DNA of 64,000 bases, from the NCBI RefSeq assembly GCF_048403405.1, contig NZ_CP183129.1. One strand, given 5' to 3'. The position numbers and the translations under genes were made by a program. Every line of letters begins with the position of its first letter. Position 1 is the first letter of the stretch. Below the pieces are notes generated by a model. The model saw nothing but the letters and a program-made list of their open reading frames with translations. It was not told the DNA's origin and made no database searches. This document shows positions 1 to 39,659 of the stretch, one piece after another. Origin of the DNA: Escherichia coli. Its GTDB lineage: Bacteria > Pseudomonadota > Gammaproteobacteria > Enterobacterales > Enterobacteriaceae.

Positions 1-3000
1 TTGCCCGTTCAGTGTCACCGTAATAGTGGTGCCCGCTGGCTGATTGCTGGTGCCGGAAATTTGCAGATCCGCGCCTTTTTCGGTGGCGTTAATTATGTCA
101 TCGGTAGCGATGGTGTTAATGCCAATGGTTGGCGCGGTAAGGTTAACGGTGACCGTGTGCGTTTCGCTGTCGCTATTACCTGCCGCATCGGTAACGGTCG
201 CCATCACGGTTTGCGGGCCGCTACCCAGCGCCGTGACATCCGCCGCCGGAACGCCGACGCTCCAGTTGCCGGAGGCATCCAGCGTCGTGGTGTAGGTTTT
301 ACTGTTTAGCGTGACGGTGACGACATCCCCCGCTTCTCCGCCAGTGCTGGAACCGGAAATCACCAGCGCCTGCCCGTGTTCGGCGGCGTTAATAATATCG
401 TCGCCCGCAATGGTGTTGATGGTAAGTACCGGAACGGTGAGATCCACCGCCAGATTATGCGTGGTGCTCGCCGGGTTGCCCGCTTTGTCATTGACCGTGG
501 CGGTCAGGGTGTGGCTGCCATCGGTCAATGCCTCAAGATCTGCCGCCGGAATATTAATACTCCAGCTACCGTCGGCCTGTACCGTTGCCTGATACGTCTG
601 CACGGTCGGGCTATTGAGCGTTATCGTAACAATCTGCCCTGCCTCGGCAGTGGTGCTGCCGCTCACCGTCACACCCGCATCGGCTTCGCTGGCGTTGACG
701 ATATTGTCGCTGGCAACGGTATTGATAATGATGGTCGGGGCACTGCTATCGACGCTGTAGTTATGCACCGCCGAGGCGCTATTGCCATTAATATTGCTGA
801 CGCTGGCCTGCGTGGAGGCGCTGCCATCGGTTAATAACGCTAAATCGGCAGCGGGAACGGTGGCACTCCAGCTACCATCGCTCGCCACGCTGGCAGTGTA
901 ATTTTTCCCGCCAAAGGTGACGGTGACCGTTTGCCCGGCTTCTACATTTGTGGTGGTGCCGGAAAGGGTTAAATCAGCGCCTTTTTCTGCGCCGTTAATC
1001 ACATCGTCCGTGGCGATAGTGTTGATGGTAATAGCCGCCGGAGTGAGATCCACCGTTACCGGATGCGTAATGCTTATCGGATTTCCGGCGCTACTTTCCC
1101 CGGACACGGCAATATTAATCGTCCCCGCAGGCCAGGCGCTAACCTGCGCCGCCGTGACGCCCACGCTCCAGCTACCATCGGCCTGCACCGCAGTGGTGTA
1201 TTCCACATTATTAATTGTGACGGTAAGCGGCGTGCCTTCAGCCAGCCCCGAGCTGCTGCCGCTGACCACCAGCGCCTGCCCGTGCTCGATGATATTGACC
1301 ACATCATCGCCTGCCACCGTATCGATCCGCAGACCGGGCAGATTGGCGTCGATGGTGATATCCCGCGTGCCGCTGCCGGTGTTGCCGTTTTGATTGGTGA
1401 CCGAGGCGCTCACCGTTAAATCGCCATTACCCAGCGCCTGAATATCTGCCGCCGGAACGCTCACGCTCCAGGTGAGATTGCTGCCCACCGTCGCCGTATA
1501 AGTATTACCGCCCAACGTAATAGTTACCGTGTCGCCATCTTCCGCTCCAGTAACCTGCCCGCTGATGGTTTGCGCGACGCCCGCTTCGGCGGCGTTAATA
1601 ATATCGTCGGTTGCCACCGGGTTAATGGTCACGCCGGGCAGCGCGCTGTCAACCAGCACGTTATGGCTGGCGGTGTTGCTGTTGCCGATACTGCTGGTTA
1701 CCGCCGCCGTTACCGTGTAGTTGGCCTGGCCCAGTGCGGTTACCGCCGATGCCGGAACGGTGACGCTCCAGTTGCCGGAGGCGTCGGTCGTGGTGGTGTA
1801 ATTTTGCCCGTTCAGCGTCACGGTGATGGCGGTATTAACAGGCTGATCGCTGGTGCCGGTAATCTGGACATCGGTTCCTTTTTCGCTGGCGTTAATCACA
1901 TCATCGCCCGCAATGCTGTTAATGCCGATAAGGGGCGCTGCGGTATTGACCGTGACGGTCAATGACTGGCTGCCGCTGTTTCCTGCGCGGTCGGTTACCG
2001 AGACGCTGACAGGATAACTGCCGTCCACCAGTCCGCTGACAACGGAAGCCGGAACACCCAGACTCCAGTTGCCGGAACCATCCACCACCGTGGTGTAATC
2101 GGAATTATTTAACGTAACGGTGACAATATCGCCCGCCTGCGCGCCAGTAACCGTGCCACTGATGATTTGCGCCTGGGTGTGTTCCGGCGTGTTGATGACG
2201 TTATCGGTCGCCACCGGATTAATGGTCACCACCGGAGGCGTGGCATCGACCAGCGCCACCCGTGAAACGCTGGTCGGGTTACCGGCGACATCGTTCACGC
2301 TGGCGGTGACCGTGGCGTTGCCGTCAGCCAGTGCGTCAACATTGGCGGCGGGAACGGTCACGCTCCAGGTGCCGTCGGACTGCACGATGCCCTGATAGGT
2401 TTGCCCATTCAACGTAACGGTCACCGTCTGCCCCGGCTGAGCGTCGGTGGTGCCGGTGATGGGCAAATCCTGCCCGCTTTCGGCGGCGTTAATGATGTTA
2501 TCAGCGGTCAGTGGATCGATGCTCAACGCCGGGGCCTGGCTGTCGACGGTAATGGTGCGGGAGGTGTTGCCGGTATTGCCGCTGAGATCCGTCACAGAAG
2601 CGGTAATCGCCACCGCGCCGTCAGGCAGATTTCCCATCGCGGCGGCAGGTACCGTCAGACTCCAGGAGCCATCAGCCTGCACGGTAGTGGTAAAACTCTG
2701 TCCAGCCAGGGTTACTGTGACGGTTTGTCCTGTCTCGGCCTGTTGAGTGCTACCGGTAAGGGTCAGTGGCGCACCTTTTTCTGCGCCACTGATAATGTCA
2801 TCGCCGGAGACGGTGTTAATGGTGATCAACGGAGAAACACCGACCAGCGTGATTGCTCGAGACGCCGCGCCAGTATTTCCTGCAGCATCTGTCACGGTGA
2901 CGAAAATCGTATTGGCTCCGCGATCCAGCGTGCGGGTTACCGCCGGGTCCAGCGCCACATTCCAGCTGCCATCTGCCAGCACGATGCCCGTCAGGACATG

Positions 3001-3740
3001 AGTGCCCAATTTCACCGTTACCGTATCGCCAGGAGAAGCACCGCTGACTTGTCCGGAGATGATCTGCGCGACGGCCTGCTCGGCATTATTAAGAATATCG
3101 TCGCCCGCCACGGTGTTAACGCTGACCACGGGTGCTGAGGTGTCTACCGTGAAATTCGCGCTGTGGCTGGTGGTGTTTCCTGCCCGATCGCTGACACTGG
3201 CATTGACAGCATAATTACCCTCCGCCAGTGCCTGGACTTCCGTGGCAGGCAGCGTCACTTGCCAGGTTCCGTCGCTACCGACGGTTGCTGTATGGCTTTT
3301 CCCGTTGACGGTCAGTGTTACGGTTTGCCCCGCTTCTGCATTCGACGTGCCGCTCAGTACCAGCGCGACGTTATGTTCCGCAGCACTGATGATGTTGTCC
3401 TGAGCGATGGTGTTGATGGCAAGCGTTGGCGGTTGGGTATCGACCGTTAGCAGCTGCGCGCCGGTGACCGTATTGCCTGTGGCGTCTTTCCCACTGACCA
3501 GCACCGCCTGATTCCCTTCGCCTAACGCCTGTGCATCGGCGGTCGGCACCTGCACGCTCCAGGCACCGTTAGCGCCTACGCTGGTGGTGTAGGTTTTGCC
3601 GTTTAGCGTAACGGTGAGTTCTGTTCCCTGCGCCAGATGGCTACTGGTGCCAGAAAGCGTAAACCCGGCGGCCTGTTCGCTGGCGTTAATAATGTTATCG
3701 CCTGCGGTGGTGGCAACCTGCACGCTGGCCTGACTATTGT
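1..3740 (-). repeat. Tandem array of ~300-bp coding repeats (Ig-like domains) inside the adhesin gene; repeats diverged (~40-60% aa identity by eye)
   Basis: Recurring ~100-aa motif in the hand translation; array start approximate. Confidence 0.7.
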
Positions 3741-4548
3741 CGATGGTTAACGTTATCGAACCGGCGTCAGTGATGGTACTGCCGACAATTTGCACCACTG
3801 ACCAGGTATGTTCACCTGCACTTTGCGTGGGTAACGAGACACTCCAGTGACCGTTGTTGTCTACCTGAGTACTGGCAATAGTATTGCCGTTACTGTCTTT
3901 AATCTGAATAGTCGCCCCCGCCTGCCCGCTGCCGCTAAAGGTTGGCGTGGTGTCATCGGTGATGTCATTGGTGGCGAGAATGCCGCGCTGATCGCCCTGA
4001 TTATCGGTAACTAAGAATGATGGTGTGGCGTTGCCAGGCTCAGCGGGTGGCGTAGGGTTATTAATCACTTCCGTTTTCGAGTCGCCATCACCACCGCTTG
4101 CCAGCAGTGCACCAAGCGCACCACCACCTACCGCCGCCCCCGCCAGCCAACCCCACGGGAAGGCGCTGGTCTGAGCAACGGTATCAAGAAATGGCGCAAT
4201 GCTTTCAATCGCGGTGGTCTGGGCAGTCAGTTCTACGGGGGCTAATCCACCCGCAGCAGTATCGGCAAAGGTGACGTGGGTGAGCTGTTGTCCATCGGCA
4301 AACACCAGTTCCGATTGTTCAGCGGTATTCGCCGCTTGCAGGAAATAACCGTTGCAACGGATCACCGTGCCGTCCTGCATATAGATCAGCAGGTCATTTC
4401 CTTCACGGACGTAACGCGAAACGGCAGAGGCCTGAGCATGAACCTGCACCACGGAAGGCTCATAAATAACAACCGTGACGTCGCCAGGATTAATCAGCGT
4501 TTGTTTGACGGATGTTTTACGCGAAATAACATCAATAATCAGGCTCAT
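1..4548 (-). CDS. Giant surface adhesin / type I secretion substrate, N-terminal ~1515 codons (3' end beyond window start); BapA-like N-terminal domain followed by tandem Ig-like domains
   Basis: Minus-strand frame open from ATG at 4546-4548 (AGGAAT RBS 6 nt upstream) to position 1 with no stop. Hand translation: MSLIIDVISRKTSVKQTLINPGDVTVVIYEP..., then 13 or more ~100-aa repeats (TINTIAGDDIINAAE..ISGTS..GQTVTVTLNG.TYTATV.ADGSWSV.VPAAD..AL.DG..TV.ASVTD.AGN). Plus-strand track ORFs here are antisense artefacts. Confidence 0.85.
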   Translation of the reverse strand, partial: MSLIIDVISRKTSVKQTLINPGDVTVVIYEPSVVQVHAQASAVSRYVREGNDLLIYMQDGTVIRCNGYFLQAANTAEQSELVFADGQQLTHVTFADTAAGGLAPVELTAQTTAIESIAPFLDTVAQTSAFPWGWLAGAAVGGGALGALLASGGDGDSKTEVINNPTPPAEPGNATPSFLVTDNQGDQRGILATNDITDDTTPTFSGSGQAGATIQIKDSNGNTIASTQVDNNGHWSVSLPTQSAGEHTWSVVQIVGSTITDAGSITLTIDNSQASVQVATTAGDNIINASEQAAGFTLSGTSSHLAQGTELTVTLNGKTYTTSVGANGAWSVQVPTADAQALGEGNQAVLVSGKDATGNTVTGAQLLTVDTQPPTLAINTIAQDNIISAAEHNVALVLSGTSNAEAGQTVTLTVNGKSHTATVGSDGTWQVTLPATEVQALAEGNYAVNASVSDRAGNTTSHSANFTVDTSAPVVSVNTVAGDDILNNAEQAVAQIISGQVSGASPGDTVTVKLGTHVLTGIVLADGSWNVALDPAVTRTLDRGANTIFVTVTDAAGNTGAASRAITLVGVSPLITINTVSGDDIISGAEKGAPLTLTGSTQQAETGQTVTVTLAGQSFTTTVQADGSWSLTVPAAAMGNLPDGAVAITASVTDLSGNTGNTSRTITVDSQAPALSIDPLTADNIINAAESGQDLPITGTTDAQPGQTVTVTLNGQTYQGIVQSDGTWSVTVPAANVDALADGNATVTASVNDVAGNPTSVSRVALVDATPPVVTINPVATDNVINTPEHTQAQIISGTVTGAQAGDIVTVTLNNSDYTTVVDGSGNWSLGVPASVVSGLVDGSYPVSVSVTDRAGNSGSQSLTVTVNTAAPLIGINSIAGDDVINASEKGTDVQITGTSDQPVNTAITVTLNGQNYTTTTDASGNWSVTVPASAVTALGQANYTVTAAVTSSIGNSNTASHNVLVDSALPGVTINPVATDDIINAAEAGVAQTISGQVTGAEDGDTVTITLGGNTYTATVGSNLTWSVSVPAADIQALGNGDLTVSASVTNQNGNTGSGTRDITIDANLPGLRIDTVAGDDVVNIIEHGQALVVSGSSSGLAEGTPLTVTINNVEYTTAVQADGSWSVGVTAAQVSAWPAGTINIAVSGESSAGNPISITHPVTVDLTPAAITINTIATDDVINGAEKGADLTLSGTTTNVEAGQTVTVTFGGKNYTASVASDGSWSATVPAADLALLTDGSASTQASVSNINGNSASAVHNYSVDSSAPTIIINTVASDNIVNASEADAGVTVSGSTTAEAGQIVTITLNSPTVQTYQATVQADGSWSINIPAADLEALTDGSHTLTATVNDKAGNPASTTHNLAVDLTVPVLTINTIAGDDIINAAEHGQALVISGSSTGGEAGDVVTVTLNSKTYTTTLDASGNWSVGVPAADVTALGSGPQTVMATVTDAAGNSDSETHTVTVNLTAPTIGINTIATDDIINATEKGADLQISGTSNQPAGTTITVTLNGQ

Positions 4549-4656: not shown

Positions 4657-6012
4657 TTATTTCAAGTCGGGTAAGTCGTTGTATAAGCCCTGTTTAATTC
4701 CCGCTAATGGAATAAGGTTATTCACCGCAGCGGCATAATTTACGGCGGCGACCCAGCCATCATAATTGGCATTTATTTCAGCCGATTGCGCCTGAAAGAC
4801 ATCTTGCTCGACGGTTAATAGATCATTCAGACTGCGTTTGCCCAATTTATATTCATTTTGGTACACATCTCGCGTTTTGTGCGCACTTTCGGATTGTGCT
4901 AAACCGGCTTCTTCGCGACCCCGTGCGCCTGTCCAGTTGGCATATGCCACAGACGCTCGTTGCAGCACATCCAGTTTTGCCTGTTCGACCTGCGAGGCAG
5001 AGATTTTTTGTTGCCCTTCGGCCTGTTGCACCTGGGCAGAAACCGCGCCGCCCTGATACAGCGGCGCGTTAACGTTCAGTTGTAGCTGATCATCCCAATA
5101 CGAGCGGTCGCTGGTCTGGTAGCGCGTTTTGCCCCCCTGAATACTCAGCGTTGGCCAGTATTGCGCTTTCGTTTTTTCCACGCCGTACTGTGCTGACTGG
5201 CGTAAGTTTTCTGCCGCCAGCACCAGCGGGATGGACTGGTAATCAATATTTTTCAGCGATACCGGCTGCTCGGCTAATTCAGCAGGTGGCGCGGCTATCG
5301 CCTCCGGCTGTACGCCAGTGAGCACCGCCAGTTGCGCTTTGGCGCTTGCCATCTGCGCCTGATATTGCTCCAGCGTTGAGCGCATTCCGGCAATGCGCGT
5401 CTGGGCCTGTAATTCATCCGACGACGAGTTCAGGCCAGCGTTAGCACGCAATGCTGCCATGTTGTAGACGTTTTCCAGCGAGTGAATATTGCGTTGAGCC
5501 GCATAGCACAAAGCCTGATAACGACTGACTTCCATATAGGCAGTTGCCGTTTTCTCTGCAACATCGGTTAATGTTGCCATCAATTTAAAGCGGTAGCTGT
5601 CACGGGCGGCAGTTTGCAGTTTGATATCGTTGTTAGTTTTACCAAAGTCATACACCAGCTGTGTCAGGGTTATGCCATACGAAACGTTGTTATCAAGCCT
5701 GCCACTGGAGTCCGTTTGTCGGGACGGTCCCGCATTGCCGGTTAATCCAACGTGCGGATACCAGGCACTTTTGGCTTCATCAATTTGCGCTTCGCCAATA
5801 CCTATCTGCGCCGCCTGTTGAGTGACGTCGGGATTTCGCGCAAAGGCGCGTAATATACTTTCCTGTAAAGATAATTGGGCAACTGGCGTTACCGCTGGGG
5901 CATTCGCCCATTGTGGCAGCGGTGCAGCAATTGCAGCTTCTCCCATCACCATAAAACTTATTAAAAAAATAAACCCATTATTTTTACGGCTTTTAAACTG
6001 GAATCGCGCCAT
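4657..6012 (-). CDS. TolC-family outer-membrane efflux/secretion protein, 451 aa, with N-terminal signal peptide; likely the outer-membrane component for the adjacent adhesin
   Basis: Complete ORF; basic n-region then hydrophobic FIFLISFMVMG and AIA-A signal-peptidase-like site; TolC/OprM-like composition; 108 bp upstream of the adhesin start on the same strand. Confidence 0.75.
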   Translation of the reverse strand: MARFQFKSRKNNGFIFLISFMVMGEAAIAAPLPQWANAPAVTPVAQLSLQESILRAFARNPDVTQQAAQIGIGEAQIDEAKSAWYPHVGLTGNAGPSRQTDSSGRLDNNVSYGITLTQLVYDFGKTNNDIKLQTAARDSYRFKLMATLTDVAEKTATAYMEVSRYQALCYAAQRNIHSLENVYNMAALRANAGLNSSSDELQAQTRIAGMRSTLEQYQAQMASAKAQLAVLTGVQPEAIAAPPAELAEQPVSLKNIDYQSIPLVLAAENLRQSAQYGVEKTKAQYWPTLSIQGGKTRYQTSDRSYWDDQLQLNVNAPLYQGGAVSAQVQQAEGQQKISASQVEQAKLDVLQRASVAYANWTGARGREEAGLAQSESAHKTRDVYQNEYKLGKRSLNDLLTVEQDVFQAQSAEINANYDGWVAAVNYAAAVNNLIPLAGIKQGLYNDLPDLK

Positions 6013-6300
6013 AGATAAGTCACTTCCTTCCAGGTCATTATTTTAACTGGTTTTTATAACCAGTCTCATTTTATTAAGAAGGGTAATAACTTGTGCATCT
6101 CTTTTGTCGATCATTGATATTGGCAAAGAAATGCAGCTAAAAAGCTTATACGTTATTTATTTAGAATACACTACGACTTTTAGATTACCATCATACACAT
6201 TAAGAATAATCCACGGTAATAAGTGATTAGCATCACAGATTTATCGCGTATATATCATTTTTTTGTGACTTATTTATTAAAGGAATAAGAAAGGTAATTT

Positions 6301-6338
6301 GAATTAAAGACAAAGGCGCAGTACAGGCTGTACTGCGC
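6301..6338 (-). terminator. Intrinsic terminator downstream of ybaT
   Basis: Inverted repeat GCGCAGTACAG/CTGTACTGCGC at 6316-6338, 12 nt past the ybaT stop, followed on the minus strand by a U-rich tract. Confidence 0.6.
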
Positions 6339-6349
6339 ACAGAGAGGTG

Positions 6350-7642
6350 TTATACGGTTTTATTGCGCTTCATGACCATTGCCACAATAAGGCTGAGTAA
6401 GATTGCACCAATAATCCATATCAACGCACGGCTGCCCTGGGACCACAGGCTGTAGATAAAGCCAACGATCACCAACAACATCACCAACGTACCAACGATA
6501 AGAATCGGCAACGAGGCGTGAATATCATGACGCAGGCGGATCGCCACCACAAACACCGCCAGATAGCAGATCAAAAAGGTGGCGCTGGCAACGCTGGCGA
6601 GTGAGCCTAAATTCAGCGCCGCCGTCATCAGCATAATCAGCACCACGACAATGATGTTGCCCCAGGTACTCTGCCGCCACAGGGATTTATTCATTAGCTT
6701 CGGCAGTTCGCGTTCGCTGCCCATGTTGTCCATGATGTTAAACACGGCGAACAGGTTCGCGTTGATGGCTGAAGCCGTCGCCAGTAAAGCGCCGATGACG
6801 ACGATCACATAACCCACATGCCCGAGCAGCGGAGAAGCTGCCTGCGCTACGGCGGTATCGGCATATTTTTCTAACTCTAATGCCGATACATCGCTAAGCA
6901 AAACCAGCGCCAGCGAGATATAAAGCAACGTGGTAACGCCAATCGCCACCAGAAACGCCCGTGGCATAATGACCTGCGGATCTTTCACTTTATCCGCCGC
7001 GTTCGCCATCATGCCAAAGCCCGCATAGGCAAGGAAGGTTATCCCGATACAGGAGAAGAACGCACCGGAGCTGGGGGGCGCAGAGACGGAAATATGCGCC
7101 GGTTGCAGCGACCAGACACCTGCAATGATCAGCAATAACAGGATCATCATTTTAATGCCGACGAGGATCACTTCCAGCCGCCCTACCGCATGGTTGCTTA
7201 AGGAGTTGAAAAGCGTCATCACCGCAATGATCCCCAACGCGTAGAGCAATATAAGGTGCTCCTCCTGACTGCCTTCATGCAAAAACTGCACGGCATAAGC
7301 GCCAAAAGCACGGGCGACCATGGCGATGCTCACCGCCAGCGTCAACAGGTACAATAACGAGAGTGCCAGCGAAAAGACGCCGTTGCCTAATCCGCGACGA
7401 AAGAAGTCGATAATACCGCCATTGCTGGGATAGCTCGCCCCTAGGCGCGCATAGGCATAACCGGAAAACATCGCCACAATACCGCCAAAAGCAAAGGCGA
7501 CCCAGGTCGAGGCTTCCATTAGCAACGCAGCCTGCCCCAGCAGCGCGAAGATCCCCGCCCCCACCATTGCCCCAATACCGATGGAAACGACGTTCCATAG
7601 ACCGAGGGGTTTGTTATCGTTATTACCTTCCGTGTTCATCAT
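6350..7642 (-). CDS. ybaT: APC-family amino acid transporter YbaT (430 aa)
   Basis: Complete ORF; polytopic membrane protein sequence; 2 nt downstream of glsA. Confidence 0.9.
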   Translation of the reverse strand: MMNTEGNNDNKPLGLWNVVSIGIGAMVGAGIFALLGQAALLMEASTWVAFAFGGIVAMFSGYAYARLGASYPSNGGIIDFFRRGLGNGVFSLALSLLYLLTLAVSIAMVARAFGAYAVQFLHEGSQEEHLILLYALGIIAVMTLFNSLSNHAVGRLEVILVGIKMMILLLLIIAGVWSLQPAHISVSAPPSSGAFFSCIGITFLAYAGFGMMANAADKVKDPQVIMPRAFLVAIGVTTLLYISLALVLLSDVSALELEKYADTAVAQAASPLLGHVGYVIVVIGALLATASAINANLFAVFNIMDNMGSERELPKLMNKSLWRQSTWGNIIVVVLIMLMTAALNLGSLASVASATFLICYLAVFVVAIRLRHDIHASLPILIVGTLVMLLVIVGFIYSLWSQGSRALIWIIGAILLSLIVAMVMKRNKTV

Positions 7643-35171: not shown

Positions 35172-38324
<3,153 letters not shown>

Positions 38325-38341
38325 TACAACGTGTAATCACT

Positions 38342-38365
38342 AAGGCCGCGCAAGCGGCCTTTTTT
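38342..38365 (+). terminator. Intrinsic terminator of acrAB
   Basis: AAGGCCGC-gcaa-GCGGCCTT followed by TTTTTT, 18 nt after the acrB stop. Confidence 0.8.
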
Positions 38366-38869
38366 ATGCATAACCTACGAACATTAAGGAGTCATTGAAC
38401 CACCAACTCAGGATCTCATACGAAAACCAGTATTAAACACGTATAAAATTCATAAAAAATACTGATTGTTAGTTAATTTATATTAAGTAGCGCTAATAGA
38501 TTTAATAATCCATAATCATTTAGAGGCTATTCTTAATTATTTGCGGTAATTCTTTATTCATTCCTCGGTTATTACGTCATATTCAGAGCAATCCTGGTAT
38601 TAGTGTTACCAATTTCATCTGGCGATAATCCTGAAATGTTATGAACAGTTCGAGCAAACTGCTTTTACCTGCTGCGGGTTAGTGCTAGTATGAAAAAGTA
38701 AGTCCTGTCCCGCTTCCTTCCTAATTGTAATTTTTCGTAATAATGCGATGAAAACCTGCAAAGAGTGGCTTATAGTTAAGCTAACAAACGAGAGGGCAAG
38801 TCCAGGTCAGTAAGTTTTTTCCATCCCGAAAGGTGTCCGTTAGTTCAACCACTAAGAAGGGGACGCGTT

Positions 38870-39488: not shown

Positions 39489-39659
39489 TAAATAATTCGC
39501 TTTCGGAGCTATAACCAGCTGTTTATTAAGAATTTTATACTTTTTCGCCATGAAGACGTACCCTATGTGATCTTTATCACACAGATGTAATGGGAACGTT
39601 CTCTTCACTGACTTTTCATCTTACTGTGTTGCCGCATTTTCAGCAACCGGAGGTCAGTA

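Follow-up and report, generated by a model that had tools for sequence, protein, structure and literature searches.

The AT-rich stretch at positions 6013-6349 of the 64-kb piece of Escherichia coli DNA analyzed here (the window) is very probably the region that controls transcription and translation of the O-island 28 (OI-28) operon, which starts directly after the ybaT terminator. The stretch is the 337-bp spacer that separates the ybaT stop (6350) from the tolC28 start (6012, minus strand). The original prediction had placed it between G+C-rich island genes and the ybaT terminator, and both the ORFs and a terminator scan agree. It had also assigned the promoter region of the island operon to this DNA, and a published tolC28 control region indeed covers the same stretch (PMC12758282).

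The locus is the type I secretion/giant-adhesin operon of O-island 28 of EHEC O157:H7 (EDL933 Z0608-Z0635, Sakai ECs0540-0544). The window sequence shares 100% identity with E. coli TUM14771 and 98.5% with O157:H7 genomes. Read on the minus strand, the operon has the order tolC28, siiEA (rtxA28/rtxB28), hlyB28, hlyD28, and then cueR. Its first gene, tolC28 (Z0608/ECs0540; 4657-6012), encodes a TolC-family outer membrane protein (Pfam OEP, E = 1e-47; PGAP). Next comes the 5' part of siiEA (1-4548, minus strand, open at the window edge), a giant adhesin of the BapA/SiiE type by annotation and by its Pfam domains BapA_N, Big_13, and Big_6. In the 100%-identical genome, the DNA from ybaT to cueR carries the TolC family gene, siiEA (20.8 kb), a T1SS permease/ATPase gene, and an HlyD adaptor gene. 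On the other side of the spacer lies ybaT (6350-7642, minus strand), an APC family permease gene according to its ORF and the PGAP annotation of the identical genome, and beyond it are glsA and then copA. The ATG of cueR overlaps the hlyD28 stop codon (ATGA; locus sequence L003:27452-27455). Thus, in island-bearing strains, this copper regulator gene is the last cistron behind the T1SS operon.

In one relative (L036:3465 onward), the adhesin is a single 7222-aa ORF, and the annotation of TUM14771 marks it as frameshifted. For EDL933, two proteins have been described, RtxA28 and RtxB28, and these may be pieces of one gene. Two short metagenome-assembled contigs assigned to distant taxa also carry parts of the locus. 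A Collinsella contig (L004) holds a 99%-identical TolC28 together with the 3' end of ybaT, and for this reason is very probably mis-binned E. coli. A Bacillota contig (L033) has a TolC28 homologue that matches only residues 41-182, with 57% identity, and therefore looks like mis-binned enterobacterial DNA.

The OI-28 operon contributes to early adherence and gut colonization by EHEC O157:H7 (PMC12758282), and this role gives the control region some medical interest. The control region and three of its regulators have already been published, and nothing reported here changes their understanding in a major way. What our analysis adds is a corrected evolutionary picture involving one deletion, a conservation map of the spacer, candidate PhoB and CRP sites, and a candidate translational leader.

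Base composition, published expression and H-NS

The stretch was predicted to be strongly AT-rich, and windowed G+C values support this description fully. The whole spacer (6013-6349) has 32.3% G+C, and 6013-6315 has 29.0%. The 300-bp segment with the lowest G+C content in the entire 64 kb, 28.7%, is 6011-6310. For comparison, 300-bp segments across the window have a mean of 52.3% (sd 5.0), and just 0.07% of them have a G+C content as low as 30.3%. The run of A and T that had been singled out earlier is located at approximately 6154-6213. TpA steps make up 11.9% of the dinucleotides in the stretch versus a window mean of 4.3% (top 0.4%), a frequency that is not above the 12.6% predicted from local base composition. 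Only one other trough below 36% G+C occurs in the window, at approximately 38.3-38.8 kb, and corresponds to the acrB-tomB spacer. This second spacer (38259-38795, 31% G+C) lies upstream of tomB-hha and is among the most curved sequences predicted in the 64 kb.

The activity of the operon has been documented under several conditions. Niu et al. (2025) cloned 320 bp upstream of tolC28, and found by using a tolC28-lacZ fusion and qRT-PCR in DMEM that activity depends on RstA and Ca2+ (PMC12758282). In the same study, RstA was enriched upstream of tolC28 in ChIP-qPCR experiments and caused an EMSA shift that required the box TAATTCAAATTACC, located at -294 to -280. The genes ecs0540-0544 are described as PhoB-activated members of the Pho regulon by Yoshida et al. 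(2010; Mol Genet Genomics 284:197), as cited in two later papers (PMC3978041, PMC12846084). Dong and Schellhorn (2009) measured 55-fold RpoS dependence of Z0608 in LB at an OD600 of 1.5, with array signals (log2) of 10.8 in wild-type EDL933 versus 5.0 in an rpoS mutant (PMC2907692). Finally, Bergholz et al. (2007) found ECs0540 and ECs0541 upregulated by log2 3.5-4.1 (11-17-fold) in cells entering stationary phase in glucose minimal medium (PMC2241611). Taken together, these data on RstA, PhoB, RpoS, and growth phase indicate that the operon is conditionally active in the wild type, and not silent.

This conclusion bears on the possibility that H-NS polymerizes on the AT-rich stretch and keeps a foreign operon off in standard culture, such that expression requires removal of H-NS. 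We regard this as a serious alternative, but one that has somewhat the smaller share of the probability. Its appeal begins with the composition itself, which at 71% A+T over 300 bp is the maximum of the window and is accompanied by a high TpA content. Strong RpoS dependence and activators of the OmpR/PhoB family are also common features of H-NS-repressed promoters. Moreover, H-NS binds the giant-adhesin operon of Salmonella SPI-4, where HilA acts as a counter-silencer (PMC12607715), and it represses Vibrio RTX operons and hlyCABD (PMC12846084). In EHEC Sakai as a whole, about 440 loci bound by H-NS were detected by ChIP-chip (PMC4764244).

However, wild-type cells express the operon in LB at stationary phase (log2 10.8), during the growth transition in minimal medium, and in DMEM. 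The original prediction that it is probably silenced under standard conditions is therefore contradicted by wild-type expression published for LB, minimal medium, and DMEM. Among the features expected for an H-NS-repressed promoter, the stretch has an AT content much higher than that of the genome, whereas little or no wild-type expression is not what the literature describes. The searchable text of the literature contains no H-NS binding or hns-mutant data for Z0608/ECs0540. Searches of the DNA for an H-NS signature also argue little in favor of silencing. The match to the 10-mer H-NS motif TCGATAAATT at 6238-6247 carries 2 mismatches, and is uninformative because 81 matches with at most 2 mismatches are present in the window, a number not above chance. 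The curvature prediction, which used the Bolshoy wedge model with parameters validated solely by comparing phased with unphased A-tracts, gave a moderate value at about the 7th percentile, well below that of the region upstream of tomB-hha. Furthermore, an H-NS filament would have little room to spread, because the stretch is only ~300 bp long and its flanks have 50-60% G+C. Binding of H-NS to the stretch is nonetheless plausible on the basis of composition and the analogy with SPI-4. Within a control region of the OI-28 operon, H-NS may coat the DNA and be countered by the activators of the operon.

Conserved blocks, candidate promoters and a candidate leader

Six Escherichia sequences, among them E. 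coli, E. ruysiae, E. whittamii, and a cryptic clade, were aligned across the spacer. Third codon positions of ybaT, which are ~73% identical between species, served as a near-neutral yardstick. Relative to this value, the spacer is a mosaic. A core block of 65 bp (6130-6194) is near-invariant, with 92-95% identity across species, as is a proximal leader of 85 nt (6013-6097), with 93-98%. A Pho-like block at 6265-6293 retains 83-90% identity. The DNA at 6098-6129 appears to be unconstrained (50-56%). The least conserved part of the spacer is the published RstA box (6293-6306), which is only 42-47% identical in sister species and has a 5-bp indel nearby, although the blocks that surround it are conserved. 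Because the box lies in this variable part, the contribution of RstA may be restricted to E. coli, or may have less weight than the published work implies (PMC12758282). Upstream regions from Pseudocitrobacter and from an Enterobacterales MAG could not be aligned with the stretch. All spacer elements described below lie on the minus strand.

Three candidate promoters can be discerned within the spacer, with inferred or predicted starts near 6242, 6156, and 6061. The most distal one would be of the Pho type. The RstA box TAATTCAAATTACC (6293-6306) is an exact match to the published box, and is situated 281-294 bp from the ATG at 6012. Adjacent to it is a candidate PhoB site that consists of Pho-box-like 11-bp direct repeats CTTTCTTATTC / CTTTAATAAAT / AAGTCAC (6265-6293), recognized by matrix score. 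Within these repeats, CTTTAATAAATAAGTCAC (6265-6282) has the top Pho-box-like score in the whole window according to a matrix built from Pho-box sites, and another repeat unit is located 11 bp upstream. This candidate box matches 14 of 18 consensus positions, and 2% of local shuffles yield a match of this quality. Matches with 4 mismatches are not enriched across the window (3 found versus 2.0 expected), and no match with at most 3 mismatches to the Pho-box consensus was detected.

In the phoA and pstS promoters, the Pho box replaces the -35 element and lies 10 nt upstream of the -10 element. Here, a candidate extended -10 element, TGATATATA (6249-6257), was read from the sequence exactly 10 nt downstream of the Pho-like box, and its TATATA is invariant in the 6 Escherichia sequences. 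A distal promoter composed of the repeats at 6265-6293, the 10-nt gap, and TGATATATA would start near 6242, and relative to this start the RstA box would span about -64 to -51. Such a location would be more usual for an activator of the OmpR family than one ~140 bp upstream of the promoter predicted by BPROM.

The BPROM promoter reported previously, with its -35 ATGATG and -10 GTGTATTCT (PMC12758282), provides the middle candidate. Its hexamers fall within the core block 6130-6194, at 6189-6194 and 6163-6171, respectively. The TATTCT at 6163-6168 resembles a -10 element of the sigma-S type. A pattern search of the 64 kb identified a candidate CRP-like palindrome, TGTGA-TGCTAA-TCACT, at 6222-6237. 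The pattern TGTGA-N6-TCAC occurs at only two sites in the 64 kb, which count as 3 matches (0.54 expected by chance) because the second site is palindromic and scores on both strands. Half-sites of the CRP-like element are invariant among species, while the 4 nt at its center differ. The sigma-S-like -10 element could belong to a second promoter, which would be served by the CRP-like site centered ~72-73 bp upstream of the expected start. Elsewhere in the window, a perfect CRP-type palindrome, TGTGATCTTTATCACA, is found between hha and maa (39566-39581). A promoter scan yielded 2 sigma-70-like matches versus 2.4 expected, and hence no enrichment.

The proximal leader contains a promoter-like sequence, TGCACA-18-TAAAAT (6068-6097), which is followed by a hairpin, ACTGGTT-ATAAA-AACCAGT (6046-6064), and by the Shine-Dalgarno sequence GGAAGGAAG (about 6017-6028). 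In the predicted fold, the Shine-Dalgarno region is base-paired with CCUUCU and AAGUUAUU, which lie upstream of it (z = -2.6, 1 of 200 shuffles), and GGAAGGAAG itself is predicted to pair with the upstream CCCUUCUU. The conserved leader could thereby sequester the Shine-Dalgarno sequence. Changes in the apical hairpin across species are exclusively one-sided and wobble-compatible. The lack of compensatory pairs can be attributed to the fact that the leader sequence hardly varies. On this model, the leader at 6013-6097 may be a translational control element of tolC28. A separate 13-nt long-range pairing, between 6265-6277 and the start-codon region at 6011-6023, was considered and rejected because a G-to-T change in the sister species is uncompensated.

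No ops/RfaH element was found in the leader. An ops-like sequence, GGCGGTAGGTGG, is present at 4124-4135 (minus strand) on the sense strand, ~420 nt inside siiEA. The only nearby copy of the ops 8-mer GGCGGTAG is the one inside siiEA. It is probably not meaningful, given that the window contains 6 copies of the 8-mer versus 1.2 expected.

The tolC28 gene is broken into three ORFs in E. whittamii (L008:4001-5356), and is shortened to 394 aa in E. ruysiae (L038), and in both species the leader upstream is still 93-98% identical to that of E. coli. In E. coli SCPM-O-B-8794 (L030:3775-4060), a deletion extends from approximately window position 6140 to approximately codon 168 of tolC28, and takes out both the proximal leader and the start of the gene.

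Conservation of this kind could in principle reflect a hidden small gene or small RNA, and the two near-invariant blocks (65 and 85 nt), the short ORFs of 21-40 codons, and the leader fold (z = -2.4 to -2.6) might be cited for such an element. We consider it very unlikely to be the main reason for the conservation. An Rfam scan of 5700-6700 matched no family even at E <= 1, and the sole short ORF on the same strand (6043-6126, TTG start) crosses the unconstrained DNA at 6098-6129. Moreover, the conserved blocks coincide with elements of tolC28 that resemble promoters, regulator sites, and a Shine-Dalgarno sequence.

If the elements of the control region are combined, they might form a compact multi-input switch, in which PhoB and RstA act at a distal Pho-type promoter located just past the ybaT terminator, sigma-S and CRP act at a second promoter, a near-invariant 85-nt mRNA leader sequesters the Shine-Dalgarno sequence and thereby gates translation of tolC28, and H-NS serves as a baseline repressor to be overcome by these inputs. 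We offer this complete arrangement only tentatively, and judge it rather unlikely as a whole. If it is true, the published BPROM assignment, 140 bp from the RstA box, is wrong or incomplete.

The island boundary and the K-12-type deletion

The ybaT gene ends in an intrinsic terminator (6306-6338, minus strand) that was identified by terminator scan and as an inverted repeat. Its stem, GCGCAGTACAG/CTGTACTGCGC, occupies 6316-6338, and its T-rich tail occupies 6306-6315. Five other Escherichia sequences retain the stem but differ in the loop, and the changes are wobble-compatible. Homology with island-free (K-12-type) E. coli ends at 6321/6322, as determined by megablast and junction alignments. 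In every island-free genome among 30 rows sampled across the megablast ranking, homology starts at query position 523. The boundary between core and island thus falls within the stem of the ybaT terminator, and consequently the AT-rich DNA belongs entirely to the island.

The K-12-type allele is a deletion of ~25.8 kb whose other end is 100 bp before the hlyD28 stop codon. To the left of the breakpoint, K-12 has the terminal 100 bp of hlyD28, in which a 1-bp deletion shifts the reading frame, and these run straight into cueR (L002:2901-3001). Because 100 bp of hlyD28 remain, the island-free allele is a deletion rather than an empty insertion site. The same scar is carried by 4458 of 5426 complete E. 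coli genomes, and the island is present in 958 of them. In E. ruysiae, E. whittamii, and a cryptic-clade Escherichia, the island is likewise found at ybaT, and this shared location makes its presence look ancestral in the group. As judged from these sequences, O-island 28 is ancestral DNA that has since been lost, and not an insertion into a K-12-like site.

The deletion also took the promoter-distal arm, half of the ybaT terminator hairpin, in K-12. A terminator scan of the corresponding K-12 DNA (L002:2850-3100) detected nothing resembling a terminator downstream of ybaT on the same strand. With this arm lost, ybaT transcription may read through into cueR in K-12.

The earlier view that repeats and integrase remnants are absent holds up: no direct or inverted repeat of at least 9 bp links the two island ends, a tRNA search detected no tRNA gene, and no integrase is annotated. 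An attachment site, flanking repeats, and an integrase, which would mark an integrase-mediated island junction, are thus all missing. The proposal that the stretch is a junction of acquired DNA fared less evenly. Its AT-richness was upheld, but its status as a junction was not, as AT-rich DNA accompanies the operon in other genera as well. In 25 of the 25 related enterobacterial loci examined, the tolC homologue is preceded by an AT-rich stretch, whose lowest 300-bp G+C content is 20-38%. In the most distant locus kept, from Pseudomonas, the upstream minimum is 43%. These comparisons of sequence indicate that the low G+C content is inherent to the 5' control region of the operon and not a by-product of an insertion junction.

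It is accordingly highly improbable that the stretch is a passive scar of horizontal insertion, that is, a functionless remnant of AT-rich donor DNA or an attachment site, even though the island genes have 58-61% G+C versus ~51% for E. coli and the stretch abuts the end of K-12 homology, since large blocks are conserved far above neutral sites across Escherichia species, the AT-rich DNA travels with the operon, tRNA gene, integrase, and flanking repeat are lacking, the island-free allele is a deletion, and published reporter and binding data demonstrate a regulatory function (PMC12758282).

Comparison with known systems

The control region of the OI-28 operon can be compared with several characterized systems. 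The candidate distal promoter resembles Pho regulon promoters such as those of phoA and pstS in that phased 11-bp repeats are followed, after exactly 10 nt, by a -10-like TATATA. The operon is also reported to be PhoB-activated, as are Pho regulon genes (PMC3978041, PMC12846084). Unlike those promoters, it has a box that agrees with only 14 of 18 consensus positions. The middle candidate is similar to class I CRP-dependent promoters with a site near -72.5. The TGTGA-N6-TCACT core matches at 9 of 10 positions, and the induction of the OI-28 operon when glucose runs out (PMC2241611) would fit such a promoter. It differs in that the -72.5-type position is relative to a predicted promoter.

The siiA promoter of SPI-4 (siiABCDEF) offers a parallel for the operon as a whole. 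Both systems combine a giant Ig-repeat adhesin (SiiE in SPI-4) with a T1SS in an operon that has one upstream control region. The SPI-4 region is bound by H-NS, is counter-silenced by activators, and has an ops/RfaH element (PMC12607715), whereas the OI-28 leader is without an ops element. The TolC-family gene comes first in OI-28, in contrast to SPI-4, and the regulators are RstA, PhoB, and RpoS instead of HilA and SprB.

The closest counterpart is the tolC28/ecs0540 region of OI-28 in EHEC O157:H7. The window DNA is from a strain other than O157 (TUM14771, the best match, is a human fecal isolate), and in function the two regions have no difference. They share the same locus, the RstA box, and the -35 and -10 strings of the BPROM promoter.
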